This document shows, one piece after another, positions 1,849-59,054 of a DNA stretch of 64,000 bases (its first letter is position 1; the number at the start of each line of letters is the position of its first letter). The notes beneath the pieces were generated by a model, which was not told the origin of the DNA, ran no database searches, and worked only from the letters and a program-made list of their open reading frames with translations. Both the position numbers and the translations under genes were made by a program. The stretch lies in assembly GCA_951812955.1 (NCBI GenBank), contig OX638340.1:1088001-1152000 (forward strand). The letters run 5' to 3'. The DNA is from an uncultured Gemmatimonadota bacterium. Lineage in GTDB: Bacteria > JAAXHH01.

Positions 1849-2910
1849 ATGTCCCTCTACGAATACATTGCCGCGGCGCCCAAGGCGGAGCTGCATGTGC
1901 ACCTGGAAGGTTCCATCCAGCCTTCCACCTTCCTGATGCTGGCGAGACGCCACCGGGTCGACCTGCCGGCAGATACCGAGGAAGGATTGCGTAACTGGTA
2001 CCGGTTCAGGGACTTCCATCATTTCATCGAGGTGTATGTCGCGATAACACGCTGCCTGCGAACCGTCGAGGACTTCGAGCTGATCGTGTACGAATTCGGC
2101 GCCGACATGGCGCGGCAGAACATCCGGTACGCGGAGGTCACCTTTTCGCCGAGCACCCACCTATGGATCAATGGGGTCGACCAGGATGTGTGGTTCACGG
2201 GACTAACGGAAGGTCGCCGCCGGGTGAAAGCCTCTTTCGGCGTCGAGATCAACTGGGTGTTCGACCTGGTGCGCAACGACTATCCCGAGCGGGGGCGATT
2301 CGATTACACGACCGATGTCGCCATCGAGGGGATGGATGACGGGGTGATCGCCCTGGGCCTGGGCGGCATGGAGGAAGGCTACCCTCCCGGACCGTTCGAG
2401 CCGTGGTTCGACCGGGCCAGGACAGCCGGCCTGCGCAGCGCGCCTCACGCGGGAGAGCACGTTGGCCCCGAGAGCATCTGGAGCGCGATTGAAGACCTGG
2501 GCGCCGAACGCATCGGCCACGGCGTCCGGGCCATCGAGGATCCAAAGCTGGTTTCCTACCTGGCGGAACATCGCATTCCGCTCGAAATAAGCCCCACGAG
2601 CAACATTTGCCTTGGTCTCTATCCCGATGCAGCTTCCCATCCCATGAAAGCACTCCACGAAGCGGGGGTAATCGTCACCGCCAATTCGGACGATCCTCCG
2701 CTGTTCAATACCACACTGACCGAGGAACTGGCGCTACTGGCCGACCCCTGGGGATTTTCCAGGGAAACCATCGACGAGATCCTGCTGAACGGGGTGCGCT
2801 ACAGCTTTCTGCCGGAGGACAGGAAACGGTCCATGGAAGCATATTTCCAGGAAGAGATGGGGGTGCTGCGTGAAGAGATGCGCGATCCGCGGGACCAGCC
2901 TGGCACCTGA
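1849..2910 (+). CDS. adenosine/AMP deaminase family protein
   Basis: HVHLEGS metal-binding motif near N-term, TANSDDPPLF near C-term, 353 aa. Confidence 0.8.
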   Translation: MSLYEYIAAAPKAELHVHLEGSIQPSTFLMLARRHRVDLPADTEEGLRNWYRFRDFHHFIEVYVAITRCLRTVEDFELIVYEFGADMARQNIRYAEVTFSPSTHLWINGVDQDVWFTGLTEGRRRVKASFGVEINWVFDLVRNDYPERGRFDYTTDVAIEGMDDGVIALGLGGMEEGYPPGPFEPWFDRARTAGLRSAPHAGEHVGPESIWSAIEDLGAERIGHGVRAIEDPKLVSYLAEHRIPLEISPTSNICLGLYPDAASHPMKALHEAGVIVTANSDDPPLFNTTLTEELALLADPWGFSRETIDEILLNGVRYSFLPEDRKRSMEAYFQEEMGVLREEMRDPRDQPGT

Positions 2911-2945
2911 CCAACCTGGCGCGTGACCAATCTGGCACCTGACCA
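2898..2945. repeat. 3 tandem degenerate 16-bp repeats (cctggcacctgaccaa) overlapping deaminase stop, in convergent spacer
   Basis: read directly: cctggcacctgaccaa / cctggcgcgtgaccaa / tctggcacctgaccag. Confidence 0.85.
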
Positions 2946-2971
2946 GACGACCAGACCATCAAATCAGATCG

Positions 2972-3982
2972 TCAGACCAGGTGGCACGCCGCCCTGTGGC
3001 CATTACCCTTGTCTTCCAGCGCGGGGACTTCGGTCTTGCATCGGGCTTCCGCCAGGGGGCACCGGGGATGGAAGGGACACCCCGGGGGAAGGTCGGCCGG
3101 GTTGGGCACGTCGCCCTTGAGGATGGTCCGGTCGCGTTCCAGCGTAGGGTCGGGCAGGGGCACGGCCGAGAGCAGGGCCGTGGTGTAAGGGTGAAGCGGC
3201 TTCGCGTAGAGCTGATCTCTTGTGGCCGTTTCCACGATTTTGCCGAGATACATGACGGCCACCCGGTCGCTGATATGCCGCACCACGCGAAGGTCGTGGG
3301 AAATGAAAAGATAGCTCAGTCGGAACCGTTCCTGCAGCACCTTGAGCAGGTTGATGATCTGTGCCTGGATCGATACGTCCAGCGCCGAGACCGGCTCGTC
3401 GGCAATGATCAGTTCAGGCTGGACGGCCAGGGCACGGGCAATGCCGATGCGTTGTCGCTGGCCGCCGCTGAACTCATGGGGATACCGGCGTACGTGCGCG
3501 GGATTCAGGCCCACCGTTTCGAGCAGGTCGGCCACGCGGTCTCCCGCTTCTCCCCGCGTACTCAATCCATGAACGGTAAGCGGTTCCCGGAGCAGGGAAC
3601 CCACGGTCATGCGGGGGTTGAGGGAGCCGTAGGGATCCTGGAATACGATCTGCATCTGGCGGCGGAGCCGCCGGAGATCGCCCTTCTTCATGGAGAAAAC
3701 TTCGTGCGGCCTTCGTTCCTGACCGTCCTCGAGTGCGGTATGGAAGGTGGCGGTTCCCGCGGACGGATCGATCAGGCGCATGATTGCCCGCCCTATCGTG
3801 GTCTTGCCGCACCCGCTTTCACCCACCAGGCCCAGCGTTTCGCCTCGCTGAAGCGAAAGATCTACGCCGTCTACGGCCTTGATCACCGTCCGGCGACGCC
3901 GCAGCAGTCCGCCTCCTACGGGGAAGTGTTTCTTCAGACCCTGTACCTCTAACAACAATTCAGTCGATTCCGTCATTTCCAC
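2972..3982 (-). CDS. ABC transporter ATP-binding protein (OppF/DppF-like)
   Basis: Walker [13 protein letters not shown] signature LSGGQRQR, C-terminal oligopeptide/dipeptide ATPase extension; likely GTG start. Confidence 0.85.
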
Positions 3983-4027
3983 ACTCCGTCATTTTCCCCA
4001 CTCGGTCACTTTTCCCACTCGGTCAGG
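3969..4027. repeat. 3-4 tandem degenerate 17-bp repeats (tccgtcattttcccac) in spacer between the two ABC ATPase genes
   Basis: read directly. Confidence 0.8.
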
Positions 4028-5012
4028 CCATATCCTTCTGCGAAACCCGCTGCCATTCGCCGCAGCGGACCACGTGGTGGCCTTCCACATCCAGCAACGC
4101 CTGCGGCCGATCGCAGACTTCCGCCGCGAAATCGCAGCGCGGCGCGAATCGGCATCCGGCAGGAAAGCGCACGGGGTCGGGTACCGTGCCCTCGATGGTC
4201 AAAAGTTCCTCGGTACTCGAACTCATGGTCGGCACGGACGCGAGCAACCCGCGGGTGTAGGGATGGCGGGGACTGCCGAATAACGTTTTGACGTCGGCCT
4301 GTTCCACGACCTGGCCCGCGTACATGACCAGTACCTCGTGCGCCATCTCGGCCACGATGCCCAGGTCATGGGTAATCAGCATCAGTCCCATGCCCAGTTC
4401 TTCCTGCAGACGGCGCAGCACATCGAGAATCTGTGCCTGAATCGTTACGTCCAATGCCGTCGTCGGTTCGTCGGCGATCAACAGCTTGGGATCGCAGGAG
4501 ATGGCCATGGCGATCATCGCGCGCTGGCGCATGCCACCGCTGAGTTCATGGGGATAGCTTCCGGCCCGTTCTTCCGGCAGTGGGATGTCGACCAGGTCCA
4601 ACAGCTCTACCGCCCGCCGCCAGGCCTCCTTCCGGTCCGCGCCCCGGTGAAGGCGGATAGCTTCGGCGATCTGTTCGCCGACAGTGAATACCGGGTTGAG
4701 GGAGGTCATCGGTTCCTGGAAGATCATGGCGATGTCGTTGCCCCGAATGTCCCGGATCTGGCGTGACGTGAGTTGCAGCAGGTCCCTGTCCTCGAAAAAC
4801 ACCTCGCCACCGGCGATGCGGCCGGGAGGTTGCGGGATCAAGCCCAGGATTGAATAAGCGGTCATGCTTTTGCCACATCCGGACTCTCCCACGATACCCA
4901 GCGTCTTGCCGGTCTCAACCTCGAAACTGACGCCGTCGACGGCCCGTACCACGCCGCTCTCGGTGTCGAAGTAAGTCTTCAGGTCGCAGACGCGCAGGAT
5001 TGTATTCGGCAT
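4023..5012 (-). CDS. ABC transporter ATP-binding protein (OppD/DppD-like)
   Basis: Walker A GESGCGKS, signature LSGGMRQR, 329 aa. Confidence 0.85.
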
Positions 5013-5019
5013 GCTACTC

Positions 5020-6102: not shown

Positions 6103-6112
6103 TGCCTATCTC

Positions 6113-7414: not shown

Positions 7415-7490
7415 AGGTGCCTATGATCCTGGTCTGGATCATGGTCGGTTGCGCGTCATCACGGGTGCGGACAGGTGCTGGAACGTGCGA

Positions 7491-9350: not shown

Positions 9351-9421
9351 TTCGTCGTACCTCCAAGCGCTTCCAGTGCGCCATGAATTGTCCACTCACA
9401 GTCCGGTGAACTTCCGCTGGA

Positions 9422-10411: not shown

Positions 10412-10427
10412 CGAATGTCCTTTCTGT

Positions 10428-10471
10428 CAACCGATTTGGCAAATCTCTGTCAACTGGTACGATAAATCCGG
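10428..10471. repeat. 2 tandem degenerate ~22-bp repeats (ctgtcaaccgatttggcaaat / ctgtcaactggtacgataaat) in 252-bp intra-operon spacer
   Basis: read directly. Confidence 0.6.
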
Positions 10472-12355: not shown

Positions 12356-12409
12356 CTCGCAGGTATTGACCGGGGCTGTGCCGCTGTCCCGAACCTGTCC
12401 ATTTCCTCG

Positions 12410-16729: not shown

Positions 16730-16858
16730 GGAACACTTCCCTTGATACCCTTCTTCTCCACCGTGTCCAACGAGCGCGGCCGGTCGACAGGGTCCGGACC
16801 GGCCGGTGTATCGCCCGTAAATCCTTCGCAGGATCCGGGCCGGCCGGTGTGTCGTGCG

Positions 16859-17755
16859 TTATTCCATCGTACTGTAACTGTTATAGATCGTCTCGATCCA
16901 ACGTGCCTCCGGGACGAAATCACTTGCGTATCCGGTCCATTCATCCGGCAGACCCGCCGCCTTGATCTCGTCGAGCGTCTTTCCCTCCGCCATCATTGCA
17001 CGGACGGCATCCGTGGTCGCGACGAGCATATCGTGGTAGGACTGCAGGGCCGCCCGGTCTCCCAGGTCGCCGTGTCCCGGGATGACGTGGGTGTCCGGTC
17101 CGATCACCGACAGCACGTGGGCGATGTTTTCGATCAGTCCGCCTACCGTACCGCCACTACCCAGGTCAACATAAGGGAAGCGCCCGTTGAAGAAAGTATC
17201 TCCCATGTGCACCACGTCCGAACCCGTGAAATAAACGTAACTGTCGGTATCCGTGTGCCCTTCGGGAATGTGCACCAGCTTGATCTCTTCCCCGTTGAAA
17301 TGGACCGACACCTCTTCGTCGAAGGTGATGACGGGCCAGCCGTCCTCCACCATCGCAGGTATAGTCTGGTCACCCCGTTGCACTGGCATGGAGACCCTTT
17401 TTCGGACGTTGGTATGAGCGATTATGGTCGCCTCCAGGCCGAAGATCGGATTGCCACCAACGTGATCGCCGTGAAAATGGGTGTTCAGGACGAACTTGAG
17501 GGGCCCCGCGTGCAGACCCTGAAGGGCCGACTTGATCTTATCGGCCAGCGGCGCATACTGGTCGTCGACGATCAGTATGCCGTCGTCACCGACCGACACA
17601 CCGATGTTGCCTCCGCTGCCCGTCAGCATGTAGATGTTGCCGACAACGGGATGGGCTTCGACGACGACCTCGTCCCAGTTCCGTTGTGCCTCCGCCGCGC
17701 CATATGCCAGGAAAGTGGCTGCAGCCGCGACCGCAAAATTAAAGATCCGCTTCAT
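16859..17755 (-). CDS. secreted MBL-fold metallo-hydrolase
   Basis: signal peptide MKRIFNFAVAAAATFLAYGAAEA, HFHGDHVGG motif; GGGAGGG SD 5 nt upstream of ATG 17755. Confidence 0.8.
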   Translation of the reverse strand: MKRIFNFAVAAAATFLAYGAAEAQRNWDEVVVEAHPVVGNIYMLTGSGGNIGVSVGDDGILIVDDQYAPLADKIKSALQGLHAGPLKFVLNTHFHGDHVGGNPIFGLEATIIAHTNVRKRVSMPVQRGDQTIPAMVEDGWPVITFDEEVSVHFNGEEIKLVHIPEGHTDTDSYVYFTGSDVVHMGDTFFNGRFPYVDLGSGGTVGGLIENIAHVLSVIGPDTHVIPGHGDLGDRAALQSYHDMLVATTDAVRAMMAEGKTLDEIKAAGLPDEWTGYASDFVPEARWIETIYNSYSTME

Positions 17756-17808
17756 GGAAATCCCTCCCGTTTTAATCAACACTCATCTTCCAGATCATAC
17801 TGTTCCTT

Positions 17809-17862
17809 CGTGCCGATTCTTCGTGCCGATTCATCGTGGCTGATTCTTCGTGGCCGACTTCC
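17809..17862. repeat. 4 tandem degenerate 13-14 bp repeats (cgtgccgattctt) just upstream of MBL gene
   Basis: read directly. Confidence 0.85.
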
Positions 17863-18577: not shown

Positions 18578-19744
18578 TTATGGAAGCGAAATTTCACCGT
18601 TCCAGTTCTTCGGGAAGGCCTGGTATTCAGCATGTGGATAAGACTGCGCGTCAACTCCTGTGCTTTCGGTGTCGTTCAGTCCATCGACAGAAACGGTAGC
18701 ATCCAAGCTGGCCAGATAGTCCAGCAATTCCCAAGCCGCCGATATGTTTACGCCGAAATTGTCGAGTGTATCTATGGACGCCAGGAACTCTTCTTCTTCC
18801 TCTTCCTCTTCTTCTTCGCCTTCACCTTCACCTTCTCCCTCACCTTCGCCTTCTCCCTCACCCTCTTCCTCCTCGTCGTCGGGAAAAGGGATGATCTGAT
18901 TGATCCCCGCGTGGTTTATCGCGATGATGTTACCCGCGTGATCGAAGACCGGGCTCCCGCTCGTTCCACCACGGGTGGCGAGGTTATAGTGGACCAGGTC
19001 CCCGGTGTTTATTGGGAAATCCAGAAAGGACGGATTATAGAACGGCCGAAGCGCACTGATCGTACCATCCTTGAAACTGGCGACCGGAAGAATAGCGTCG
19101 AAGATCCGAGGCAATCTCGGAAAGCCGAGGGTTCCAACGGGTTGCCCTGCACGCAGGTCATCGGTGTATTCTCTCGGCAGAAACGAAGGGGTAGCGTGGG
19201 AGATTTCGCCATTGATCCTGATCAAAGCGATATCCGCAGACATGACGGAACCATCGTATTCGGGGTGAAATACGTAAGGCGCCCACAAGTACGTTTCATC
19301 GCCGCCAATCAGGGTGCCCGTACGGGTGACGAACGGGATCGGGTTCAGTTCCACGATTTCCGGATCATTGATGAATTCCAAGACACCCTCGACCACGTGG
19401 GCATTGGTCCAGAGCTTGTCGGTGAAATACGCGCTGAAAGCGGTCCCGCCCGAAAAGGCTCCTTCGTCGGTCAACACACCGACAATGTAGATGGCATCCT
19501 GCAGATTGCCGCTCTCGATGACATCCGCCCAGTTGAGCGTCTCGCCGGGGACGCCCTGATCGCCCTTATCTCCCTGGGCTCCCTGGACGCCCTGGACGCC
19601 TTGGACGCCTTGAACACCCTGGGTTCCCTGGACGCCCTGGGCTCCCTGGACGCCCTGATCGCCCCGTGGACCCAGGGGACCCTGATCGCCCTTGCAGGCT
19701 ACCAGGACGAATGCAAATGCAAGTATCGTCGTTAACCTCGCCAT
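18578..19744 (-). CDS. lipoprotein: collagen-like (Gly-X-Y)n tract + trypsin-like (S1) serine peptidase domain + poly-Glu/Gly-Glu tract + C-terminal unknown domain
   Basis: signal/lipobox FVLVAC; 16 consecutive GXY triplets (GDQGPLGPRGDQGVQG...); protease His (WTNAHVV) and Ser (GGTSGSPVF) motifs; EEEEGEGEGEGEGEGEGEEEEEEEEEE tract; AGGGG SD before ATG 19744. Confidence 0.75.
   Translation of the reverse strand: MARLTTILAFAFVLVACKGDQGPLGPRGDQGVQGAQGVQGTQGVQGVQGVQGVQGAQGDKGDQGVPGETLNWADVIESGNLQDAIYIVGVLTDEGAFSGGTAFSAYFTDKLWTNAHVVEGVLEFINDPEIVELNPIPFVTRTGTLIGGDETYLWAPYVFHPEYDGSVMSADIALIRINGEISHATPSFLPREYTDDLRAGQPVGTLGFPRLPRIFDAILPVASFKDGTISALRPFYNPSFLDFPINTGDLVHYNLATRGGTSGSPVFDHAGNIIAINHAGINQIIPFPDDEEEEGEGEGEGEGEGEGEGEEEEEEEEEEFLASIDTLDNFGVNISAAWELLDYLASLDATVSVDGLNDTESTGVDAQSYPHAEYQAFPKNWNGEISLP
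18790..18880. repeat. trinucleotide (GAR)n coding microsatellite encoding the poly-Glu/Gly-Glu tract
   Basis: + strand reads ctt ctt ctt cct ctt cct ... tandem triplets. Confidence 0.8.
19556..19690. repeat. 9-bp periodic repeat encoding collagen-like GVQG/GAQG tract
   Basis: + strand ccctggacgcc units repeated ~12 times. Confidence 0.8.
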
Positions 19745-20006
19745 GTTCACCCCTTCTACAGAAGTTCCGCCACTCCGGCCGACTGTTCGGCATTTCATAT
19801 AAACTCCAAAGAATGAAGGATATTACATCAATACCCGGCTATTGCAAGGAATTACCACTTGTGTAACATAATCTGTTAGACACATGTCGGGTTCAGGGGA
19901 TAGATTGTCCTGAACCCATTTGCGATCAGGATTACGGCATACCTACTCGCCAGACGGCGGAACGCGGCTATGCCGGTCTAACCGGGACCTTTGCGAGGAA
20001 CTCACC

Positions 20007-23641: not shown

Positions 23642-23702
23642 TAAAACAGGGAATGTTAAACGCGAAAACAGGGAATGTAAGACGGTAAGGAATGCATGAA
23701 AC
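23642..23702. repeat. 3 tandem degenerate ~21-bp repeats (aaaacagggaatgttaaacgcg) in 5' leader of sulfatase gene
   Basis: read directly. Confidence 0.8.
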
Positions 23703-26261: not shown

Positions 26262-26305
26262 AGATCCACCTTACTTTATTCGTGTTCCCATCGACTTTAC
26301 CTGTG
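26262..26305. repeat. 2 tandem degenerate ~22-bp repeats (tttac.tgttcccaacgac) upstream of desaturase
   Basis: read directly. Confidence 0.6.
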
Positions 26306-26338
26306 TTCCCAACGACATCATCCAGGCAGGATGGAATC

Positions 26339-28602: not shown

Positions 28603-28663
28603 GACACGGAATCGATCCCCTTCGACCCGGCGTTTTCCTTGCCTGCCCAGCCCCAGCCACCTC

Positions 28664-28738
28664 ACCTGTACTTCCGTAGCTACGACTCCTGAACTACCGC
28701 AGCCACGATCTCCTGTACTTCCGCAGCCACGGTCTCTC
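28664..28738. repeat. 3 tandem degenerate 24-bp repeats (cctgtacttccgtagctacgact) in convergent spacer
   Basis: read directly. Confidence 0.85.
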
Positions 28739-33070: not shown

Positions 33071-33167
33071 GCCTACTTCAATGCTAATCTCGTATACGCA
33101 ACTACCGGAATACCTATCTCGCATGCGCAACTACTGGCACTCCTACTTCAATGCCTGCTCAGTCTCC
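33071..33167. repeat. interleaved degenerate direct repeats (cctacttcaatgc x2; tctcgtatacgcaactaccgg x2) between enolase and NHL genes
   Basis: read directly. Confidence 0.7.
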
Positions 33168-36766: not shown

Positions 36767-36978
36767 TGGTTTCTGTTAAATGGGCTTAAGACTTGAACGA
36801 TCGTCGAAATTCACGTTGTTGTTTCGAGCAGAAGCTGACAAGCGCTAACACTGTAGCTTAACTACATGTCCCATTTTGGGGTGCACTACAAACTTAATCT
36901 AAGTCCCAGATCGGACGTGGCGAAGAAGAAACCAATATAACTCCGTCATGTCTTAACGAGATTTAGCAATCAAGCATT

Positions 36979-40636: not shown

Positions 40637-40672
40637 CAGGACCTCTCCGCTCGACGGTACAGTCTCTGCCGG

Positions 40673-40762
40673 GCCTGTGGTTCCAACCGTTCAACGTGCC
40701 GCGCCTGTTATTCCAGCAGTTCAACGTGACGCGCCTGTTGTTCCAACCGGTCAACGCGTTGC
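40673..40762. repeat. 3 tandem degenerate 30-bp repeats (cctgtggttccaaccgttcaacgtgccgcg) in convergent spacer
   Basis: read directly. Confidence 0.85.
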
Positions 40763-43627: not shown

Positions 43628-44095
43628 CTATCTCCACCTTTCCAGGACGAACTCGTATCCCAGGCCGTAGTTGTCCTGTTCGTTCATGGCCAGGGATGCC
43701 TCCGGAAACTTGATGATGCGCCATCCGTCGTCCAGCGCTTCCTTGATCGACCGGTACCTGAAATCGCCGTTTTCGTCGAGGCCGTCGGAGTCCGCTCCAT
43801 CTTCGTAGATGCTGATACCGACCACGGCCGAGTGGGGGTTGGTCGAGGGTGCGTGCAAGTAGAGCAGACTCTGTTTAGACCCGGTCGAAGACTCCTGCGG
43901 CTGCAGCTGCGGTTGCGTCTGCTTCTGTGCCTGCGGTTGCTTCTGCGCCTGCGCCTGCTTCTGTGCCTGCGGTTGCTCCCGCACCTTTAACTGCCCCTGT
44001 GCCTGAGCCAGGGCCCGGTCAATGTCCTTGATATCAAGTTTTCCGTTTTTGAAACGCTTCCTGATTCGTTTCAATATCGCGGTCATTTTATCCAT
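43628..44095 (-). CDS. hypothetical protein: basic N-terminal helix, Gln-rich (QAQKQ)n linker, ~90-aa unknown C-terminal domain
   Basis: ORF stop 2 nt before PhyH start codon; QPQAQKQAQAQKQPQAQKQTQPQLQPQ low-complexity tract. Confidence 0.5.
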   Translation of the reverse strand: MDKMTAILKRIRKRFKNGKLDIKDIDRALAQAQGQLKVREQPQAQKQAQAQKQPQAQKQTQPQLQPQESSTGSKQSLLYLHAPSTNPHSAVVGISIYEDGADSDGLDENGDFRYRSIKEALDDGWRIIKFPEASLAMNEQDNYGLGYEFVLERWR

Positions 44096-44277
44096 TCGTT
44101 CATCTACCTCATTACACACGCACACAATACACGCGCAGGCACGTGGCGGCCGGTCGTCCCCATGGCGGGAATGCCGGGCCTGGTCATTTAAGCTGGCTGT
44201 TGTCCGTTACGCGATTTCACGGAGAAATATGACCAACATAATCGGACGCCCGGCATGTGAAAAGAAGAAACGCTCAC

Positions 44278-45213
44278 CTATCGGCCCGCCAATCTTGCCA
44301 TGAGTATCAGGCTGCATTCTCCACAGACCAGCAGGGTGGCCAGGGTGAGGTGCATTACTTGCGCGGGTCGCGGCAGATCTCCGTAAGCAAGGGTGATGCC
44401 GATCAGGATTTGCAACATGATGCCGGCCAGGATGAGGCGGGCGACCGGAACCAGCCGGCTTCCGTGTGCGTGCCGCACGACGAATCGGTATACCAGGACG
44501 CCGGCAAGCAGGACTAGCCAGGAAGACAGCCGGTGTACGTGATCCACGAATCCCACCCGGGCCAGCCATTCGCCGCGGGGGAGGCCGCCGTCGTCTTTGA
44601 TGAAGGGATCGATGCCCTCACGGACCTGCGTGCCAAGGAGCAGTTGGATCGTCGTGACCGCCAGGAGTGCATACGCCAGCCGCAGGAGGACAGCGCGGGC
44701 TTCGGGCGCCATATTGACGCGGAACCGGGGTCCTGTGGACTGAAAGGTCACGTAGAGCAGGGCGCACAGCAGGATTACGGCGAGGAACATGTGCAGGGTA
44801 ATGATCCCGGGCTGGAGACCGGATCTGACCACCTGCCCACCCAGCCAGCCCTGGAAGCCGACCAGCACGAAACACAGGCCGGCGCCGTAGCAGACCGCGG
44901 GCTGTGTGCTTCGATATCGTAACGAACGCAGGAAGGTGACGAACACGAGTATTCCGATCACCACGCCCACGAGCCGGTTCGCGTATTCGATCCACATTTT
45001 GACGGGATTGAACGCGGCGATGTCGTAGCCCTTATCCAGTAGATAATCCCGGTCCAGGTCCTCGACGCTCGACGGCGGCAGCCAGGAACCCCAGCACCTT
45101 GGCCAGTCGGGACAGCCCAGGCCGGCCCCGGTGATCCGCACCAGGCTGCCGACGGATATCAGCAGAATCGTGGCTGCCAGCGTCGCCACGGCCGTTTTTT
45201 GAAAGGCGTTCAT
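44278..45213 (-). CDS. ctaA: heme A synthase (COX15/CtaA family)
   Basis: CPDWPRCWGSW motif, 8 TM, conserved His pairs. Confidence 0.75.
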   Translation of the reverse strand: MNAFQKTAVATLAATILLISVGSLVRITGAGLGCPDWPRCWGSWLPPSSVEDLDRDYLLDKGYDIAAFNPVKMWIEYANRLVGVVIGILVFVTFLRSLRYRSTQPAVCYGAGLCFVLVGFQGWLGGQVVRSGLQPGIITLHMFLAVILLCALLYVTFQSTGPRFRVNMAPEARAVLLRLAYALLAVTTIQLLLGTQVREGIDPFIKDDGGLPRGEWLARVGFVDHVHRLSSWLVLLAGVLVYRFVVRHAHGSRLVPVARLILAGIMLQILIGITLAYGDLPRPAQVMHLTLATLLVCGECSLILMARLAGR

Positions 45214-45353
45214 GATAGGCCATCATAGACCGGCAGGCCACTTTCGGCAAGGAATATTGGACCGGTTGGCGCATGTACGGGAAGTCTGATTTGTAGTTGC
45301 CAATCAGGCCGTCCAATTGTATTTTATGCGAAGCGGTACCGCGTGGTTATCGT

Positions 45354-45426
<73 letters not shown>

Positions 45427-45478
45427 TTCCCTTTAACATGCCGGGTGTTTCCCGGCGCTAAGCCGGAACGGACGGACC

Positions 45479-45844
45479 ATGTCATTCTACGAAGTGGAAA
45501 CCTGGGTTCCTAAGCCTGGCCGGAAGGTCGACCACGATGAAATGATCCGGACCTGGTTCGCCTTCGTCGAAGCCCACAAGGACGAACTGTTCCCCGAATG
45601 GCGGTCAGCCCGGTACTACCGCGAAGTGACGCGCGATACGGCCCGTGCCACCGGGCGATATGTCATGGTATTCGAGTACGTATCCCACGAAGGATTCCTC
45701 GCATACAAGGCGCGGCGCAAGGACTGGTCGGGACCCTATGCGGAATACAAGAAGGTGGATCCCTACCAGTTCTTCGACTTGGACACCGTCACCGAAACCT
45801 GCTGGATGCCCGAGGAACGGGACCGCTGGCTCGACTTCACCTGA
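45479..45844 (+). CDS. hypothetical small protein (121 aa)
   Basis: clean ORF immediately 5' of arginase-family gene; no recognised motif. Confidence 0.45.
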   Translation: MSFYEVETWVPKPGRKVDHDEMIRTWFAFVEAHKDELFPEWRSARYYREVTRDTARATGRYVMVFEYVSHEGFLAYKARRKDWSGPYAEYKKVDPYQFFDLDTVTETCWMPEERDRWLDFT

Positions 45845-46637: not shown

Positions 46638-46652
46638 TCGGCACCTCCCGCC

Positions 46653-47864
46653 ATGTCCTCCACTGATGCCATCTTCAAAGATCTGGTCGTCATCGAGGCC
46701 GCGAACGTCCTGGCCGGTCCCGCCGTGGGCATGTTCTTCGCGGAACTCGGCGCGACGGTAATCAAGGCGGAGAACCCGAAGACCGGCGGCGACACGACCC
46801 GCCACTGGAAACTGCCGACGGAACGGCGGGATGGGGACGTATCCGCCTACTTCTCGTCGGTGAACTGGGGAAAGCGATCCATCGGGATTGATTATTCGAT
46901 ACCGGAAGGATTCGCCGTCCTCTGCGACCTGCTGGTGCGCGCCGACGTGTTCCTGCAGAGTTTCAAACCGGGCGACGCCAGGAAATTCAGGCTCGATTAT
47001 CCCACCTTGCGCCGGCTCAACGACCGGCTCATCTACGCCGATATCACAGCCTTCGGCCACGAGGACGAGCGGCCTGGGTTCGATGCCGTATTGCAGGCGG
47101 AGACCGGCTTCACCGGTATGAATGGCACCGATGAGAGTGGTCCGGTGAAAATGCCAGTGGCCCTGATCGACCTGCTCCTGGCCCACCAACTGAAAGAAGC
47201 CCTGCTCATCGCACTCATCGAGCGGATGCAGTCCGGGCGGGGGTCATACAATACCGTGTCGCTGTTCCACGCCGGCGTCGCCTCGCTCGCGAACCAGGCG
47301 GCAAACTTCCTGGTGGCCGGAACCGTGCCGGGCCGCGCGGGATCGGACCACCCGAATATCGCTCCCTATGGTACCATATACGAGACCCGTAACGGCGAGT
47401 CCGTCGTGCTGGCCGTAGGCACGGACAGCCAGTTCCGGGCGTTGTGTGATGTCCTGGGTGTACCCGAAGCGGCAGAAGACGAGCGGTTCAGGACGAACCC
47501 TCAGCGAGTGGTTCATCGCGGCGCGCTGAACCGGCTGCTGGAGGATCGGATAGGCCGGCAGGAGAGGACCTCCCTGCTGGCTGCCCTGCAGTCCCGGAAG
47601 GTGCCGGCCGGCGCGGTCCGGCCGCTGGACGAAGTGCTTGCGCGGGAGTCCGTGGCGCCGTTGCGACTGCGCGGGAGGCAATCGGACGGCACCTCGATCA
47701 ACGGGCTGCGCTCGATCGCCTTTGAAAGTGACGCCGTTTCGCCGCCGGAATGCCTGAACGCCCCGCCGGGATTCGACCAGGACCGTCAGTTTGTGCTCGC
47801 GGAAGTCCTGGGCTATACCGAGGACCGCATCGAAGGGTTAAAGAAGGCTGGTGCGATCCTGTAG
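46653..47864 (+). CDS. family III CoA-transferase (CaiB/BaiF)
   Basis: N-terminal LVVIEAANVLAGP and conserved Asp region typical of CaiB/BaiF. Confidence 0.8.
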   Translation: MSSTDAIFKDLVVIEAANVLAGPAVGMFFAELGATVIKAENPKTGGDTTRHWKLPTERRDGDVSAYFSSVNWGKRSIGIDYSIPEGFAVLCDLLVRADVFLQSFKPGDARKFRLDYPTLRRLNDRLIYADITAFGHEDERPGFDAVLQAETGFTGMNGTDESGPVKMPVALIDLLLAHQLKEALLIALIERMQSGRGSYNTVSLFHAGVASLANQAANFLVAGTVPGRAGSDHPNIAPYGTIYETRNGESVVLAVGTDSQFRALCDVLGVPEAAEDERFRTNPQRVVHRGALNRLLEDRIGRQERTSLLAALQSRKVPAGAVRPLDEVLARESVAPLRLRGRQSDGTSINGLRSIAFESDAVSPPECLNAPPGFDQDRQFVLAEVLGYTEDRIEGLKKAGAIL

Positions 47865-48885: not shown

Positions 48886-49061
48886 TCCAGGATCTGGCGA
48901 GCCGCCGGCTGCTGATCGGCCGGACGCGTTCGTGTTCTAAGTTTTCATGGTCATCTCTCGGGCAACTGCGCTACTTGCAAGGTCCACAGAGCAACTGAAC
49001 TACTTGCCGAAGCGCCGGGATTCGACAATCACGCGTACCTAACCAAATGCGAAGGAATATG

Positions 49062-49448: not shown

Positions 49449-49579
49449 CCGGACCGCGTGAACGGGAAGCGGCCTTCGCGGGAGCCCTCGGTCCTACGGC
49501 GCAGGCCCACGACAGGGCGGCGCAGGCCCTGAGCCCATCGAATAACATTTGATAAACCCGAGAGAAGGAGCGTGAAACA

Positions 49580-50287
49580 ATGAACAGGACGGCGGCCTAC
49601 ACGGTCCAGCGTGGCATACCCGTCTCGCAACTGGGCGTCGACGCGAGAGGGGCGTTTATCACGCGAACCTACACCCATCTTCTCGGGGCGATCCTGGCAT
49701 TCGCCCTGATTGAGATCTACCTGTTTCAGACCGGCATGGCGGAGTCGATCGCCCGCGTGCTGCTCAGCGGGTCCTGGCTCATCGTACTGGGCGGTTTCAT
49801 GATCCTGAGCTGGATTGCGACCCATCTCGCGCACAATGCGCAGACCAAGGGGGGTCAATACGGCGCGTTGGGGCTGTTCGTCGTGGGCGAAGCCATTATC
49901 TTCACGCCGCTGCTCTACCTTGCGGATTCCATGGCGCCCGGCGTGATCAACAGCGCCGCCACGGTTACGCTCATCGGGTTTCTCGGGCTGACGATCGTGG
50001 CCTTTCATACCCGCAAGGACTTTTCCTTCCTCGGCGGGCTGCTGCGGTGGGGGTTCATCTGCGCCCTCGTGCTGATCGTAGCCAGCGTGCTATTCGGATT
50101 TCATCTGGGAACGATCTTCACCGTGGCCATGATCGTACTGGCGGGCGGCGCGATCCTCTACGACACGTCGAACGTCCTGCATCACTATCCCGAAGACCGG
50201 CACGTGGGCGCGGCGCTTCAACTCTTCGCCTCCGTGGCGCTGTTGTTCTGGTACGTCCTGCAGTTCTTTCTGTCGTCGAGAGACTGA
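49580..50287 (+). CDS. Bax inhibitor-1/YccA family membrane protein
   Basis: 7 [19 protein letters not shown]-terminal signature. Confidence 0.75.
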
Positions 50288-50334
50288 AACATCTCGACGG
50301 GGCGCGTCAGTTAACCAATCGGAGAGGTACCGTT

Positions 50335-51042
50335 ATGTTCAACCGAAAGAGTCTACACGCTGCGGTGTCCATCGGCCTGATGGCCCTGGTGCCGTCGCTG
50401 TTCACACTGGCCTGCGAGGGACCGGTTGGACCGACTGGACCGGCAGGAGCTCAGGGTCCGGCTGGACCGCAAGGCGCTGCCGGATCACAGGGACCGGTGG
50501 GCACGGACGGAAGTACTGGACTACAGGGGCCGGAAGGACCGCCTGGACCGCCTGGACCGCCTGGCGAGGTAAGAGTCATCGATCTGGACCTGGTCGGTTC
50601 GTGGCGATTCGAGAGCACGGATATCGTGCAGACCCTTGCGGAGAATCTCAAGGACTACCTGATCAACGAAGCCGGCCTCGATGCGGCTACCGTGGAACTC
50701 TTACTCGCCGAGTTCTTCAGGGAGATGACGGAGGATCTCAAGAACTCGCCGATTGCGACGGTTAACCTCGCCGCGGACGCCACCTTCCTGGACGGTGACG
50801 GCGCCTCGGGGACCTGGTCGGCCAACGGTTCGACGCTGCTTGTGAAACAGGACGAGACCGTTTTTTTCCTGGGAAGCTATCGCGTGGATGGCGACGATCT
50901 GACGCTGACGCTTTCCAAGGCCCAGATGCTGCAAATGATCACCAGCGCGTCGGAGGAACCACTCGCCGAAGACGAAATCATGCTGCTTGATATCCTGTTC
51001 GGCGAAAACGGTACGGCCAACTACTTCTTCAAGCGGGTTTGA
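50335..51042 (+). CDS. lipoprotein: collagen-like (Gly-X-Y)18 tract + lipocalin-like C-terminal domain
   Basis: lipobox LFTLAC then [19 protein letters not shown]...; GGAGAGG SD before ATG 50335; C-domain paralogous to 54296..54832. Confidence 0.65.
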
Positions 51043-51051
51043 GAGGCACAG

Positions 51052-51651: not shown

Positions 51652-51663
51652 GGAAACGCGGAC

Positions 51664-54027: not shown

Positions 54028-54295
54028 GGATCGGTCTCCTGGTTTTCTTTAGTAGTGGTCAGCGGTCAATGCTGTACGATTCGAATTTTGGAATATATGA
54101 CGCGGGCGGCCCCGTGTAAAGGATCATACGAGGCGACGTGTGTTGCGTGCAGGGCGGCACAAGGCCAACACGGGTGGGCGGTGCCGTTCCAACACGGGCG
54201 GGCGGCGAAAATTCTAAGTGCTGGTGAGCGACGCAGTCCCCATGGATTTCAAGGAAAGCGCCAGGTTTGCGGTGGCCTGCTGAACTAAAAGCTAC

Positions 54296-54832
54296 TTACC
54301 TCGAAAAATACATGATCATGACCTCTATGTCCTTCAGCATGATCCTCAACAGTTCCGCTTCCTCTTCGTCCTCCGCATCAAGACCCACGGTTGCCAGTAG
54401 CGAGGCTACTGCAAATTGCAGGGAAAGCGTAGTATCCGTAACGGTGTATCCCACGGAAAAAGTCTCACCATCTGAAGTCGTGACGGTTATTCGATTCCCA
54501 GACACCTGGTATCGGTCAGGCTGTTCGCCGTCGACAATCACCGTTCCGTCAGACCTGAAATCAAGGGTAAGGGCGAACGTCACGTTGGATTCTCCAAGCA
54601 TGTCAGATACCACCATGTCGGCCTGGCTCGCAGTCAGGCCCTCCCCGATCAGGTACTCCCGCAGGTTGGCGGCCAGTTTGGTATCGAAATCGTTTCCCGT
54701 ATATTTCCACGTGCCGATCAGCTTCTCTGCAGGGTCCGGGTCCGGTTCCGGTGTGGGAGTCGGGGCCATCGGATTATCGTCATCTCCGCAGGCTAGCGCC
54801 ACCAGGACGGTCATCATAAGTAGAATCCGCAT
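54296..54832 (-). CDS. lipoprotein with Pro/Asp-rich linker + lipocalin-like domain (paralogue of 50335..51042 C-terminus)
   Basis: lipobox LVALACGDD, PTPTPEPDPDP linker, LIGTWKY...ANLREYLIGEGL aligns with LVGSWRF...[13 protein letters not shown]. Confidence 0.6.
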   Translation of the reverse strand: MRILLMMTVLVALACGDDDNPMAPTPTPEPDPDPAEKLIGTWKYTGNDFDTKLAANLREYLIGEGLTASQADMVVSDMLGESNVTFALTLDFRSDGTVIVDGEQPDRYQVSGNRITVTTSDGETFSVGYTVTDTTLSLQFAVASLLATVGLDAEDEEEAELLRIMLKDIEVMIMYFSR

Positions 54833-54937
54833 ATCATGCCTCCTGCCGAGTAGGCTCGGCTATACGTGTCTTCAAGAATGGATCGGAGATGTTAACGGTG
54901 AGCTCTCCGTTTCGTCTATCAATACTTCGCTTGTGGT

Positions 54938-55162
54938 TCAAATAGATACCCTGATCGTGATGGTCTCCCTTATTGTCTCGTCGTACAGCAGGCTTTTTAT
55001 TCTGCCCTTCACCACATATCGCCCCAAATCGTTGAAACCGTGATTGAGTGACAACAGGGCCAACTTGTTGTGCTGGGCCGTTGCGACTACTCTTTGGGTT
55101 GGTTCACCAGTTGTCTGAACGATGGGGTTACTTTCCGAACAGGACGCAATCGCGAACAACAT
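54938..55162 (-). CDS. possible small lipoprotein in AT-richer region (weak)
   Basis: MLFAIASCSE lipobox-like start; lower GC than surroundings; no SD. Confidence 0.25.
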   Translation of the reverse strand: MLFAIASCSESNPIVQTTGEPTQRVVATAQHNKLALLSLNHGFNDLGRYVVKGRIKSLLYDETIRETITIRVSI

Positions 55163-55747
55163 TGTAATCAGTAGGATAGACTGGAATGCACGCAAGTACA
55201 ATATACACACCCTTTCTGAAGAAGTTAGGGGCACCATTTGACCCAATGCCTATGGTACCTGCCAGTGTTGTACGCTCGCGCTATAATTCGGTGAGTGTTA
55301 TACGATTCACCGGGGGTTGGGATCTAACTCGAAGCCCTAAAAATCGGCCACTGAATTGAGCAAACTACCCCGACCAATGTAGCACGAACAATCGACAATA
55401 GCGAGTGTCATGGTTTCAAATTGAAAATATGATCTATATTTGATTTTCCAACTGAAAACCAACTTGAAAATATAAACATCGGCTTCCAAGCTGATATTTT
55501 ATGATCAAAAAGTGATTTTTATAGTATTTAATGTGACTAAATCGCATACAACCGGATGGGTCGCCTGTGCCCTTACTTGAGGATACAAAGTCGCACAGAA
55601 GTCGGTGAAGCGGGACTCGTGGCATTTTCGGGCTATTCATCGGATATTGACAGGGACAATCCGCGGATGTACCCTGAATCGACCGCCGGTCCGGCACGGC
55701 CCGGCTCTTTCGCGGAAGAACCGCGGGAACCGTTCTCGGAAGAAACC

Positions 55748-56272: not shown

Positions 56273-56317
56273 CCCGTTATCCAGCCCCCAGTCACAACCA
56301 TAGATGATTCCCGGATC

Positions 56318-56830: not shown

Positions 56831-56983
56831 TTAAACAGTGTTGTATTTGTTTCTTGTCCCGCGTCCCTTGCCGTCATAATTTACCGGTACAGGAAATCCA
56901 AACGCCCACGCGACAATCTCGCAGGAAATACACCGTTCAGGACGAGAAACCATCCGGTCTCTCCCGGATGACCCGGAGGAGAA

Positions 56984-58087
56984 ATGTCCAGTAGATACCG
57001 CGCCGCCGTAATCGGTCTCGGCCGCATGGGGAGCACCTTCGACGACGAGATCGATCAGGGCGGGTCCATTTTCCTGCCTTACTGCCACGCACCTTCCTAT
57101 TACGCCGCGCCGGATGTGGACCTGGTCGCGGGAGCGGATCCCCACGACGAACAGCGTTCCATCTTCGGGGTGCGCTGGGGCATCGAAGACGGCCACCTGT
57201 ACACCGACTACCGAGATTTGCTCGAAAAGGAAAAACCCGATCTGCTCAGCGTCTGTACCACCGCCCGGATCCGGTCGCAGATCGTGGAGGACGCCGCCCG
57301 GGCAGGCGTGAAGGCGATCTGGGCCGAAAAGCCCATTGCCCTGACCCTGGCCGAGGCGGACGCCATGGTGAAAACCTGCGATGACCACGGCGTAGCCCTG
57401 GCCTTAAACTGCGCCCGGCGCTGGCATCCATTCTTCTCCCAGGCGCGGACCATGATCGAGGAAGACGAACTCGGCGACATCGTCCAGGTGACGGGCTACG
57501 GCCAGTGCGGACTTTCCCACAACGGCAGCCACCTGATCGATATCGTCCGGTACATGGCGGGCGGAAGGGTGGAATGGGTGTACGGCGAGATGGAATCCGA
57601 CGAGGCTGCGGAGGGCGAAAAGGATCTGATGGGCAACGGATACCTGGCCTTCGAGAACGGAGTCAGGGCCTATGTCCGGGGCATGCCCTGCGGGATCGCG
57701 AACTGGGAAATCGACGTACTGGGCACGAAGGGCCGCTTCCGCTCGATCGCCAACGGCCAGGACGCCGAACTGATCAAACTGCACCCGGGAGGGCCGCGCG
57801 GGCGGGGCGTGCCGGCCCGCATGCCCTTCCCCTGGCCCGCCCATTACCCCGGGATGGGACTGACGATCGTGGCGGACCTGGTTTCGGCTATCGAAAACGG
57901 TCATCAGCCCAAGTGTTCCGGGGTTGACGGGCGCGAGGCGCTGGAAGTGGCCGTCGCCCTCCGCGAATCGCACCGCGGCGGCGGGCGGAAGATCCATCTG
58001 CCCCTGGAGGACCGCGGCCTGGGTATACTGTCTTCCGAGATTCACGGGGACGACATCCCGGCCAGAGTCCGGCGCCTCCAAAGTTGA
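56984..58087 (+). CDS. Gfo/Idh/MocA-family oxidoreductase
   Basis: AAVIGLGRMGS Rossmann motif, EKPIA motif. Confidence 0.8.
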   Translation: MSSRYRAAVIGLGRMGSTFDDEIDQGGSIFLPYCHAPSYYAAPDVDLVAGADPHDEQRSIFGVRWGIEDGHLYTDYRDLLEKEKPDLLSVCTTARIRSQIVEDAARAGVKAIWAEKPIALTLAEADAMVKTCDDHGVALALNCARRWHPFFSQARTMIEEDELGDIVQVTGYGQCGLSHNGSHLIDIVRYMAGGRVEWVYGEMESDEAAEGEKDLMGNGYLAFENGVRAYVRGMPCGIANWEIDVLGTKGRFRSIANGQDAELIKLHPGGPRGRGVPARMPFPWPAHYPGMGLTIVADLVSAIENGHQPKCSGVDGREALEVAVALRESHRGGGRKIHLPLEDRGLGILSSEIHGDDIPARVRRLQS

Positions 58088-58128
58088 CGTCCGCACGAAT
58101 GACGTCCGCACAAATGAAGTCCACTAAG
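58084..58128. repeat. 3 tandem degenerate 15-bp repeats (tgacgtccgcacgaa) overlapping Gfo stop
   Basis: read directly. Confidence 0.8.
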
Positions 58129-58160
58129 TTGCGGTCCCCAGGATTGTATAGGGAGATGGC

Positions 58161-58925
58161 ATGAAGCTCGGGTTCGTAACCTACCAGATCGGCAAAGACT
58201 GGGATGTGCCGACCATCATCGACATGTGCGGCCGAACGGGTTTCACCGGAGTCGAACTCCGCACGACCCACGCCCACGGCGTGGAAGCATCGCTCAGTCC
58301 AGGTGAACGCGGCGAGGTCAGGCGGCTGTTCGAGGACGGCGGCGTGGATCTCGTGGGACTCGGAACGGCCTTTGAGTACCACTCGGTCGATCCCGACGAG
58401 GTCCAGGCGAATATTAAAGGAACTGTGGAGTATGCCAGACTGGCGGCCGACCTGGGCTGTCCAGGTATCAAGGTGCGGCCTAACGGTCTGCAGACGGAAG
58501 CGGGCATACCGGAAGAAGCGACTCTCGAACAGATCGGAATGGCCATCGGGCAGTGCGCGGAAGCGGCCGGCGGTCTCGGCGTGCAAATCCGGGTCGAGGT
58601 ACACGGGAAGGACACCCAGGAGCCGCGCCGGATGCGCGCCATTATGGATCATGCGGACCATCCCAATGCGTATATCTGCTGGAATTCCAATTTCGGCGAA
58701 GTGGTGGAAGGATCGATCGAGAGCAACTACCGGCTGCTGAGTCACAAGATCGGCCTGGTGCATATCACCGAAATCTACCGCGCCGAGTATCCCTGGCGGG
58801 AACTGTTCAGGCTGCTCAAGGCCGACGGTTACGAAGGTTACACGCTCGCGGAAATCGCGCACAGCCCCGAACCCGAACGGCTGATGGGCTATTACAAGGC
58901 ACTCTGGGAAGCCTACCAGGTCTGA
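58161..58925 (+). CDS. sugar phosphate isomerase/epimerase (xylose isomerase-like TIM barrel; IolE/MocC-like)
   Basis: 254 aa, GFTGVELRTTHAHG..., conserved Glu/His pattern of AP endonuclease 2/xylose isomerase-like fold. Confidence 0.7.
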   Translation: MKLGFVTYQIGKDWDVPTIIDMCGRTGFTGVELRTTHAHGVEASLSPGERGEVRRLFEDGGVDLVGLGTAFEYHSVDPDEVQANIKGTVEYARLAADLGCPGIKVRPNGLQTEAGIPEEATLEQIGMAIGQCAEAAGGLGVQIRVEVHGKDTQEPRRMRAIMDHADHPNAYICWNSNFGEVVEGSIESNYRLLSHKIGLVHITEIYRAEYPWRELFRLLKADGYEGYTLAEIAHSPEPERLMGYYKALWEAYQV

Positions 58926-58938
58926 GCGCGCACCGCGC

Positions 58939-59054
58939 GACATTAAGCGACATCCGGCGCGGCATTATGCGCGTATCCGGCGCGGCATCAAGCGCGTATC
59001 TGGTACGACATTAAGCGCGTATCCGGCGCGGCATTTATCGACATTAAATCGAAC
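58939..59054. repeat. complex interleaved direct repeats (atccggcgcggcat x3; acattaagcg x2-3; gcgcgtatc x3)
   Basis: read directly. Confidence 0.75.

Follow-up and report, generated by a model that had tools for sequence, protein, structure and literature searches.

Genes and tandem arrays of the window

The window, that is the whole stretch of 64,000 nucleotides analysed here, contains 45 spacers of at least 30 bp that sum to 6,858 bp, delimited on a gene map built from codon statistics and Pfam rather than from curated annotation. A number of these spacers carry short tandem arrays, to which no strand is assigned. Their units measure 13-41 bp and are found in 2-4 copies that have diverged by 10-25%.

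Several arrays are associated with the ends of genes. A 16-bp unit repeated 3.3 times (2893-2945; TRF and offset scan), followed by an 8-bp x2 tail that extends to position 2956, starts in the last 18 nucleotides of an adenosine deaminase gene bordering a convergent spacer, and the TGA stop of this gene is present in each unit. The 40-bp spacer between two minus-strand genes for Opp-type ABC ATPases is filled by 3.2 copies of a 17-bp unit (3972-4025; TRF and offset scan) featuring a TCA that corresponds to the TGA stop on that strand. At 58085-58122, an array of 2.5 copies of a 15-bp unit (TRF and offset scan) starts at the TGA codon that ends gene 56984-58087. The overlap of arrays with stop codons described from the sequence alone is thus found at 2893, 3972 and 58085, where TGA belongs to the repeat unit. 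A 41-bp unit (1.6 copies, 16788-16854; offset scan score 17, p=0.01) lies directly 3' of the stop codon of a metallo-beta-lactamase-fold gene on the minus strand. Convergent spacers also accommodate 3.5 copies of a 24-bp unit (28654-28736; TRF), 3.0 copies of a 30-bp unit (40667-40756; TRF and offset scan) and, in spacer 688-850, a degenerate 19-bp tandem repeat at 741-775 (feature limits 741-800; offset scan score 13, p=0.01) whose unit includes GGCCGGGAC.

Other arrays precede genes. A 13-bp unit repeated 3.9 times (17806-17857; TRF and offset scan) is found just upstream of gene 16859-17782 of the minus strand. Two copies and a partial third one of a 22-bp unit (23643-23678, feature limits 23643-23686; offset scan) are upstream of a sulfatase gene, 2.1 copies of a 21-bp unit (26273-26316; TRF) upstream of a fatty-acid desaturase gene, and 1.7 copies of a 24-bp unit (54165-54205; offset scan score 14, p=0.01) upstream of an M1 peptidase gene. 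The catalogue is completed by units of 29 bp (2.0 copies, 33087-33145; TRF), 29 bp (1.6 copies, 48962-49007; offset scan), 21 bp (1.6 copies, 49497-49529; offset scan) and 23 bp (4.4 copies, 58935-59035; TRF). Arrays are thereby located at, or a few bases from, nearly all sites named in the sequence-only reading. Site 10428 alone has weak support (score 9, p=0.11 in the offset scan with shuffles), and the offset scan adds the arrays 741-775 (19 bp), 16788-16854 (41 bp) and 54165-54205 (24 bp).

Array density in spacers and in genes

At a TRF score of at least 50, the 45 spacers yield 8 arrays against a mean of 0.01 in 200 dinucleotide shuffles, the baseline used for chance occurrence; overall, 8-10 arrays are observed with TRF where the shuffles give 0.01-0.17. 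The offset-match scan, also run with shuffles, detects a significant local tandem repeat (p<=0.02) in 19 of the 45 spacers. These tests of density and shuffling already refute chance similarity or an assembly artefact, an explanation favored by nothing beyond the weak case at 10428. The same habit recurs in more than 20 independent assemblies, including single complete-chromosome records (OY and OZ accessions), and assemblers do not create degenerate copies.

Arrays are about ten-fold denser in the noncoding DNA of the window (9.7 per 10 kb) than in its coding DNA (0.9 per 10 kb), and in 21 syntenic relatives the corresponding values are 4.6 and 0.55 per 10 kb, a difference between spacers and genes that bears out the intergenic character first proposed for the arrays. 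The further statement that spacers are built from such arrays goes too far: the arrays are real and present in ~42% of spacers, but they cover only ~876 bp (~13%) of the spacer DNA and thus do not make up spacers in general.

The arrays found inside genes have a different distribution of periods. Multiples of three account for 68-80% of coding arrays versus 32-44% of spacer arrays, and the three strongest coding arrays have periods of 18, 36 and 45. Two in-frame repeats of the minus strand were identified by TRF in the window, one of 18 bp at 18790-18868 within coding sequence 18578-19798 and one of 36 bp (18 bp) at 43894-44005 within ORF 43628-44125. The former illustrates the action of a reading-frame filter on the same duplication process that operates in spacers.

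Motif, structure and position of the arrays

The motif of each array is unique to its spacer, as had been noticed from the sequence, since its unit is found again neither at other places in the window nor at non-orthologous loci, apart from chance matches of the shortest units. The absence of palindromy is confirmed by folding: on the plus strand no array folds better than its shuffles (z between -1.5 and +1.9), and on the minus strand one array reaches z = -2.1 (16788) while the others range from -1.25 to +3.0. The arrays match no Rfam family, tRNA-Trp being the only hit obtained. Lack of dispersed copies and of palindromy rules out REP, BIME, ERIC and MITE elements, and a CRISPR array is ruled out because the copies are directly adjacent and diverged, in agreement with the initial exclusion of these systems. 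No cas-related Pfam domain was found in the ~50 window ORFs scanned.

A cis-regulatory role, in which the arrays would be direct-repeat operators, iteron-like sites for transcription factors or tunable promoter or leader spacers of the contingency-locus type, is very improbable. Some arrays are indeed found just upstream of start codons (17806, 23643, 26273), and in three relatives (L006, L013 and L023) a gene is preceded by a conserved 25-bp x2 direct repeat, so that genuine operators of such shape may exist in the clade. The window arrays themselves are neither conserved at orthologous sites nor common to several spacers, which argues against operators and iterons and leaves the earlier suggestion of transcription-factor half-sites unsupported. 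Four arrays occupy convergent 3' gaps, where no promoter is present, and sister genomes manage with single-copy versions of spacers 23559 and 26202. Contingency loci are long, perfect tracts of short units; the copies found here are few and 10-25% diverged.

Equally doubtful is an action on RNA at gene ends, where the arrays would replace terminators, load Rho as rut-like tracts or stabilize 3' ends. Such a role could accommodate that the first 60 kb are not richer in terminator-like hairpins than their shuffles, that stop codons are abutted or included by arrays 2893, 3972, 16788, 33087, 58085 and 58935, and that the plus strand is C-rich at 28654, 33087 and 3972. For plus-strand genes the C-skew has the correct sign at 2893 and 28654; at 3972 and 33087, however, the C-rich strand is the wrong one for the transcribed genes, and 16788, 17806 and 58935 have a neutral skew and no C-richness. 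In co-directional spacers arrays are as frequent near the downstream start (four) as near the upstream stop (four), one being mid-spacer and one spanning the whole spacer. The arrays have no predicted structure, none coincides with a terminator-like site, which excludes intrinsic terminators, and close relatives have array-free spacers of 4-60 bp at the same gene boundaries. The initial proposal that arrays create terminator-less gene boundaries is not supported, given the inconsistent position and strand relative to gene ends, the RNA that is not consistently C-rich, and the absence of arrays from these boundaries in close relatives. Unique motifs, lack of structure and lack of a consistent position or strand leave the arrays with no sign of a sequence-specific function.

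In the first 40 kb, consensus scans for promoters and terminators gave counts that deviate from the mean of the shuffles by no more than one standard deviation. Between 40 and 60 kb, promoter-like sites number 14 versus 6.8 in shuffles (sd 2.3) and terminator-like sites 9 versus 15.9. No array stood out in these scans. Spacers with recognizable function behave differently from array spacers. Two promoter-bearing spacers retain their length in relatives (154 bp for 47865 and 153 bp for 56831), and a classical bidirectional terminator, the hairpin at 62213-62259, is kept in relatives L047 and L048 separately from arrays, a further argument against a terminator role of the latter.

The GC-skew changes sign at ~44-45 kb, where genes also switch strand. 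A replication origin at this position was considered and dropped because matches to the DnaA box are at chance level (8 versus 8.07 expected) and unclustered.

Turnover of arrays at orthologous spacers

The window falls in a clade of MAGs that bear the label Latescibacterota or Gemmatimonadetes; isolate names of sponge or coral style are common among them and are carried by the closest database relatives of the window. Some 25 syntenic relatives (80-95% nucleotide identity) share the array habit, with units that reach ~70 bp. At an orthologous spacer, species differ in array motif and period or carry no array. Arrays are sporadic, occurring in 31 of 184 spacer instances (11 orthologous spacers, up to 20 genomes), and the spacers that bear them exceed the median length for that spacer.

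Individual spacers illustrate independent array formation and gain or loss of units. Spacer 23559 has two copies in the window and one in L001 and L005. The unit of spacer 26202 is duplicated only in the window, a single copy being recognizable in L001, L002, L005 and L008 and, as judged by eye for unit 26273, in most other aligned relatives. In spacer 33016 the window amplified a 29-bp unit and L001 a different 17-bp part, ~3.6 times. Spacer 28603, with array 28654, measures 143 bp in the window, 166 bp in L001, 119 bp in L005 and only 4-23 bp in eight other relatives. L047 duplicated a segment that overlaps array 48962 but differs from it, and has an additional duplication in the spacer of array 49497. 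The spacer of array 58085 has the same length in L047 as in the window and is 15 bp shorter in L048. At array 58935, the 172-bp spacer of the window corresponds to one of 111 bp with a 9-bp unit in L047 and to one of 179 bp with an unrelated 17-bp unit in L058; L048 has 61 bp there, and planktonic relatives have 44-54 bp.

The same dynamics are visible in global alignments of the closest pairs, the closest of which is 97.4% identical. Between the window and L001 (94.8% identity over 14.8 kb), all five indels of at least 6 bp are gains or losses of units in spacer arrays, and the single indel between L013 and L023 (97.4% identity) is likewise in a spacer array. These alignments replaced a permissive-gap classification of indels in pairs at least 85% identical, which placed arbitrary gaps originating from unalignable spacers. 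The sponge-type clade (G+C 0.61-0.63) has 6 arrays in 33.5 kb versus 1 in 59 kb of planktonic relatives, a comparison restricted to total array counts, as for all distant and low-GC loci, given that the window-trained codon model is unsuited to them. In 150 kb of E. coli K-12 there are 2 arrays, both within annotated genes; the E. coli (150 kb) and planktonic (~59 kb) baselines are small and G+C is 0.40-0.51 versus 0.61.

Origin of the arrays

These observations are best explained, with a probability of roughly 0.8, if the arrays are locus-specific, VNTR-like minisatellites generated by frequent short tandem duplication, remodelled by unit gain and loss, and kept where they are neutral. They belong to the ordinary minisatellites of bacteria, in an unusually dense form, and are not a new regulatory system. 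Of the interpretations first advanced, a mutational habit that seeds spacers is the one upheld by the rapid turnover, the independent arrays at orthologous spacers and the sister-genome indels that correspond to unit gain or loss.

Frequent short tandem duplication would copy whatever sequence occupies the spot; units would afterwards be gained or lost and their copies would decay by point mutation. Spacers would not be the specific target of this process. In genes, selection would purge duplications that are not multiples of three in length; such duplications would persist where they are cost-free, in 3' regions, stop-spanning stretches, leaders upstream of genes and convergent gaps, and would lengthen spacers of a few tens of bp to 100-200 bp. 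The arrays are probably neutral, and the molecular route may be slipped-strand mispairing, replication template switching or another duplication-prone repair pathway.

In relatives, several young duplications consist of two perfect copies flanked by 0-1 bp of microhomology (L011 at 9854, L015 at 11658 and 12071). Classical microhomology-primed slippage does not predict such junctions and the molecular route may consequently differ. It is conceivable, though unlikely, that the neutral duplications arise by a lineage-specific, microhomology-independent route instead of ordinary slipped-strand mispairing, for example by an end-joining pathway that fills in and joins staggered breaks, or through a replication or repair defect that favors duplications of 13-70 bp; this would differ from the minisatellite explanation in mechanism only. 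Beside the young junctions, it would fit the much higher array density of the GC-rich sponge-type clade compared to planktonic relatives or E. coli, and the in-frame coding arrays that are also more common (0.55-0.9 per 10 kb versus 2 in 150 kb of E. coli). However, other young arrays have partial extra copies of 4-10 bp that fit slippage, the young events number only about a dozen, and higher G+C may by itself raise repeat stability. A broader and tentative proposal is that a replication or repair peculiarity confers on the clade an elevated, partly microhomology-independent signature of short tandem duplication, from which new intergenic DNA would mainly derive and which would also feed in-frame protein repeats. 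Bacteria usually show a deletion bias; if the proposal is correct, the signature makes spacers grow from less than 20 bp to 100-200 bp in spite of it.

Neutral minisatellite dynamics do not define a new molecular system, yet they leave a strong mutational signature throughout this uncultured lineage, where local tandem duplication would be the main process shaping the length and content of spacers. Population studies of symbionts could use the arrays directly as strain markers, and their presence calls for caution when motifs are sought in these genomes or short reads from them are assembled and binned. Complete chromosomes of the clade and of its planktonic relatives could reveal the differences in replication or repair that set the rate of tandem duplication and the intergenic length.

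Comparison with known systems

A literature search on tandem repeats in Latescibacteria or sponge symbionts returned nothing relevant, and a more general one yielded mainly papers on eukaryotes. Bacterial VNTRs, which owe their value for typing to hypervariability within strains, are used for MLVA in, for example, Burkholderia pseudomallei, Xanthomonas and Wolbachia. The arrays share with VNTRs and minisatellites the locus-specific, head-to-tail units of ~9-70 bp and the mostly intergenic location: TRF and the offset scan show copies arranged head to tail at a single locus with units above ~6-9 bp. Copy number shifts between close relatives in both cases, by whole units between the window and L001, L005, L047 and L048. 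VNTRs are also treated as neutral. B. pseudomallei is described as carrying "an unusually high number" of them, and its 23 typing loci are "predominantly intergenic" and "presumed to be selectively neutral" (PMC2799673). Unlike typical VNTRs, the window arrays are short (2-4 copies), already 10-25% diverged and spread over ~42% of spacers, and sister species built unrelated arrays at the same spacer.

REP/BIME, ERIC, MIRU and MITE elements are also found between genes, MIRUs even in tandem in operon spacers, but these are many-copy families that are usually palindromic, in contrast to the spacer-unique and unstructured motifs of the window. Iterons and direct-repeat operators have a similar architecture, as they too consist of noncoding direct repeats, two to five in number and 15-25 bp long; they are conserved and recognized by a cognate protein, while the window arrays are not conserved at orthologous positions. 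In noncoding spacers of chloroplast and mitochondrial genomes, tandem-duplication indels are attributed to slipped-strand mispairing. There, as in the window and its relatives, most length changes are duplications of adjacent 4-30 bp and provide the main route of spacer length evolution, the difference being that here they take place in a free chromosome, of ~3.7-4 Mb in the complete-chromosome relatives, of an uncultured bacterial clade.

Tandem repeats in the intergenic spacers

The gene map, drawn with codon-position G+C and a codon log-odds model and then corrected by Pfam matches, assigns ~89% of the window to coding sequence and leaves 45 spacers of at least 30 bp that total 6,858 bp. 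TRF, run on the window and then again with merging, recovered nearly all arrays listed by the sequence-only reading. These are found at window positions 2893 (16 bp x 3.3 copies), 3972 (17 bp x 3.2), 17806 (13 bp x 3.9), 26273 (21 bp x 2.1), 28654 (24 bp x 3.5), 33087 (29 bp x 2), 40667 (30 bp x 3), 58085 (15 bp x 2.5) and 58935 (23 bp x 4.4). The 45 spacers hold 8 arrays with a score of at least 50, against a mean of 0.01 in 200 dinucleotide-preserving shuffles, and 10 with a score of at least 40, against 0.17. More sensitive than TRF, an offset-match scan with per-spacer shuffles assigned local tandem repeats significant at p<=0.02 to 19 of the 45. It supported the listed sites 23643, 48962 and 49497 and added arrays 741, 16788 and 54165; the site at 10428 is the sole weak one (p=0.11). 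At 10423-10470, immediately before a zinc-type alcohol dehydrogenase gene, TCTGTCAAC is found in two copies at a distance of 23 bp, and they overlap a promoter-like match. This pair could be a small operator.

Array density in the window is 9.7 per 10 kb in noncoding and 0.9 in coding DNA, and 21 close relatives give 4.6 and 0.55, respectively. The same threshold applied to three 50-kb stretches of E. coli K-12 yielded two arrays, both inside annotated genes (gfcA and waaJ). The spacer-array phenomenon itself is solid and the habit is common to the window and its relatives. The description of spacers as built from such motifs is right about their presence and too strong in its wording, since the arrays cover ~876 bp, or ~13% of spacer bases.

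Relatives and their loci

Loci of relatives (designated with the prefix L) were collected for two independent regions. Species-representative genomes scanned with the enolase-superfamily gene 31885-33015 gave 43 loci. The best match, JAPOOT010000231 ('Gemmatimonadetes bacterium APA_bin_41'), has 99% protein identity and ~20 further loci have 88-95%. Their depositors labelled them Candidatus Latescibacterota, Gemmatimonadetes/Gemmatimonadota or plain 'bacterium', and several of the deposited records, among them OY843748.1, OY762445.1, OZ252103.1, OZ241920.1 and OZ241838.1, are one complete chromosome each (3.7-4.0 Mb). Isolate names (APA_, IRC1_, SB0665_, Plut_), rather than any tool result, suggest that these organisms come from sponge and coral holobionts. 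Gene order at these loci matches that of window 21.7-36.75 kb, with nucleotide identities of 80-94%. For the ~20 relatives, this synteny breaks off precisely with the stop of the aminotransferase gene, near 36754. The following 212-bp spacer (within 36754-36978) is by eye AT-rich, unlike other spacers, and the offset-match scan found no tandem repeat in it; the segment may be a rearrangement breakpoint.

For the second region, a metagenome scan with gene 58161-58925 retrieved L047, syntenic with window 47.2-64 kb at 92.6% nucleotide identity (BLAST), together with L048 and L058, which belong to the same GC-rich (0.61-0.63) group at a greater distance. L049-L052 are marine-metagenome relatives of 40-51% G+C that we take to be planktonic. 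Most of window 54028-55555, a stretch of low G+C (0.52 versus 0.61), is missing from L047, with pairwise-alignment gaps of 448, 82, 383 and 149 bp. It includes an AT-rich 500-bp noncoding tail and ORF 54267-55043 (+), which has no Pfam match; 54296-54832 (-) is an alternative ORF. The stretch could be a recent insertion.

Array turnover at orthologous spacers

Among the 184 spacer instances obtained from 11 orthologous spacers in up to 20 genomes, a significant array is a sporadic feature (31 instances). Period and motif differ in every species, and spacers that carry arrays exceed the median length for that spacer. Spacer 25160 has a median of 43 bp and array-bearing versions of 66-160 bp. 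Spacer 28603 measures 4-23 bp in eight relatives and 143, 166 and 119 bp in the window, L001 and L005, respectively; the difference is made of 24-bp units. Spacer 58926 is 172 bp long in the window (23-bp unit, 4.4 copies), 111 bp in L047 (9-bp unit) and 179 bp in L058, where an unrelated 17-bp unit is present 5.9 times; array-free versions are 61 bp in L048 and 44-54 bp in the planktonic L049, L050 and L052.

The copy-number variation proposed as a check on the arrays was found in these relatives. A unit search recognised a single copy of the 21-bp unit of array 26273 in L001, L002, L005 and L008; by eye it is also single in most other aligned relatives, and the window alone has it doubled. 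L001 and L005 have a single copy of the 22-bp unit of 23643. In spacer 33016, one 29-bp segment is doubled in the window and a neighbouring 17-bp segment is amplified ~3.6-fold in L001. Indels that separate the closest genomes add or remove repeat units. The five of at least 6 bp that distinguish the window from L001 (94.8% identity across 14.8 kb) are all inside spacer arrays, and the sole indel between L013 and L023 (97.4% identity) falls in an array.

Array load tracks clade. GC-rich members have 6 arrays in 33.5 kb of the second region and planktonic relatives 1 in 59 kb. Within the clade, the load per 21 kb is 8 in L009, 6 in L003 and none in L007, L008, L014 and L016.

Arrays inside genes

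The strong in-gene arrays of the window have periods of 18, 36 and 45 (9); in two cases the product is a collagen-like G-X-Y repeat. Such triple-helix repeats (Pfam PF01391) are found in ORFs 18578-19798 (-) and 50047-51042 (+), one of which is fused to a trypsin-like peptidase domain, and the copy number of their 9-bp repeats varies relative to L047. Between the window and L047, genes display in-frame changes of 9-bp and 12-bp units. L047 (1-565, window 47548-47652) also carries a 105-bp in-frame tandem duplication in a family III CoA-transferase gene, either real variation in protein length or an assembly error. In the window and relatives, periods that are multiples of three account for 68-80% of coding arrays versus 32-44% in spacers, the latter close to the random expectation of one-third. 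In-frame coding arrays number 0.55-0.9 per 10 kb, versus 2 in the entire 150 kb of E. coli. The coding and spacer periods fit a process in which duplications arise everywhere and selection then filters them.

Tests for a sequence-specific function

Each unit is confined to its own spacer, as the sequence-only reading had proposed: searches at 20% mismatch found no other copy in the window or in non-orthologous loci, except chance matches of 14-16-mers. The arrays are therefore not a dispersed family of the REP/BIME/ERIC/MITE type, which agrees with that reading for REP, BIME and ERIC. Folded on both strands, they deviate from shuffles by at most ~2 sd towards greater stability, and larger deviations go only towards weaker folding. 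Rfam has no match in the window except tRNA-Trp (45353-45427). This gene adjoins a switch of GC-skew sign and main gene strand at ~44000-45500, which was considered as a replication origin and rejected, as DnaA-box matches are at chance level and unclustered.

In co-directional spacers, four arrays lie by the upstream stop, four by the downstream start, one in mid-spacer and one fills the spacer; convergent gaps hold four more. The sign of the G/C skew on the transcribed strand varies among arrays, which speaks against a rut-like reading as a general rule. The first 60 kb of the window show no excess of terminator-like hairpins, and the genome is therefore poor in canonical terminators. This agrees with one part of the suggestion that arrays mark terminator-less gene boundaries; their absence from the same boundaries in sister genomes shows that they are not a general terminator substitute. 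Some arrays overlap stop codons, as had been noticed: in 2893, 3972 and 58085, all in the shortest spacers (40-73 bp), the TGA stop of the upstream gene lies within the repeated unit. As a duplication across a stop codon does not alter the protein, neutrality predicts that it will survive.

Spacers with a recognisable function behave unlike array spacers. Spacers 47865 and 56831 contain promoter-like sequence and have conserved lengths (154 and 153 bp). Window 62213-62259 is a clear bidirectional intrinsic terminator between convergent genes (A-run, 9-bp G+C stem, T-run) whose hairpin persists, with another loop, in L047 and L048; no other obvious canonical terminator was noticed. AGTCGAGCCGGTTTGCRCGCTCACG, a 25-bp direct repeat present twice just upstream of a gene start, is found in L006 (4534-4582), L013 (4535-4585) and L023 (4549-4599). 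Conserved in three species, unlike other arrays, it is a candidate genuine operator.

Origin of the arrays and relation to known systems

The comparisons show that the arrays arise by tandem duplication on the spot, gain and lose units, decay as point mutations separate the copies, and are kept outside reading frames. Slipped-strand mispairing and template switching are the textbook source of such arrays, and would be the probable molecular route here. This mechanism is the one discussed for bacterial VNTRs (PMC2799673). Among about a dozen young duplications in relatives, junction homology of 0-1 bp is seen in some perfect two-copy cases (L011 9854; L015 11658 and 12071) and of 4-10 bp in others. 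A route independent of microhomology may contribute.

No report of such arrays was found in the literature on Latescibacterota or sponge symbionts. High VNTR loads are on record elsewhere, for instance in B. pseudomallei, whose typing loci are mainly intergenic and presumably neutral (PMC2799673). The present case stands out by its density and turnover, with arrays in ~4 of 10 spacers and unrelated arrays at the same spacer in sister species. A clade-specific, duplication-prone signature of replication or repair that drives spacer growth is an unlikely, though conceivable, reading of this pattern. The window arrays differ from dispersed repeat families, from CRISPR arrays (as first judged), from operators and iterons, and from intrinsic terminators. 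They have both the structure and the comparative behaviour of VNTRs/minisatellites, and the unusual density and turnover therefore make them a dense case of an already known type of array.
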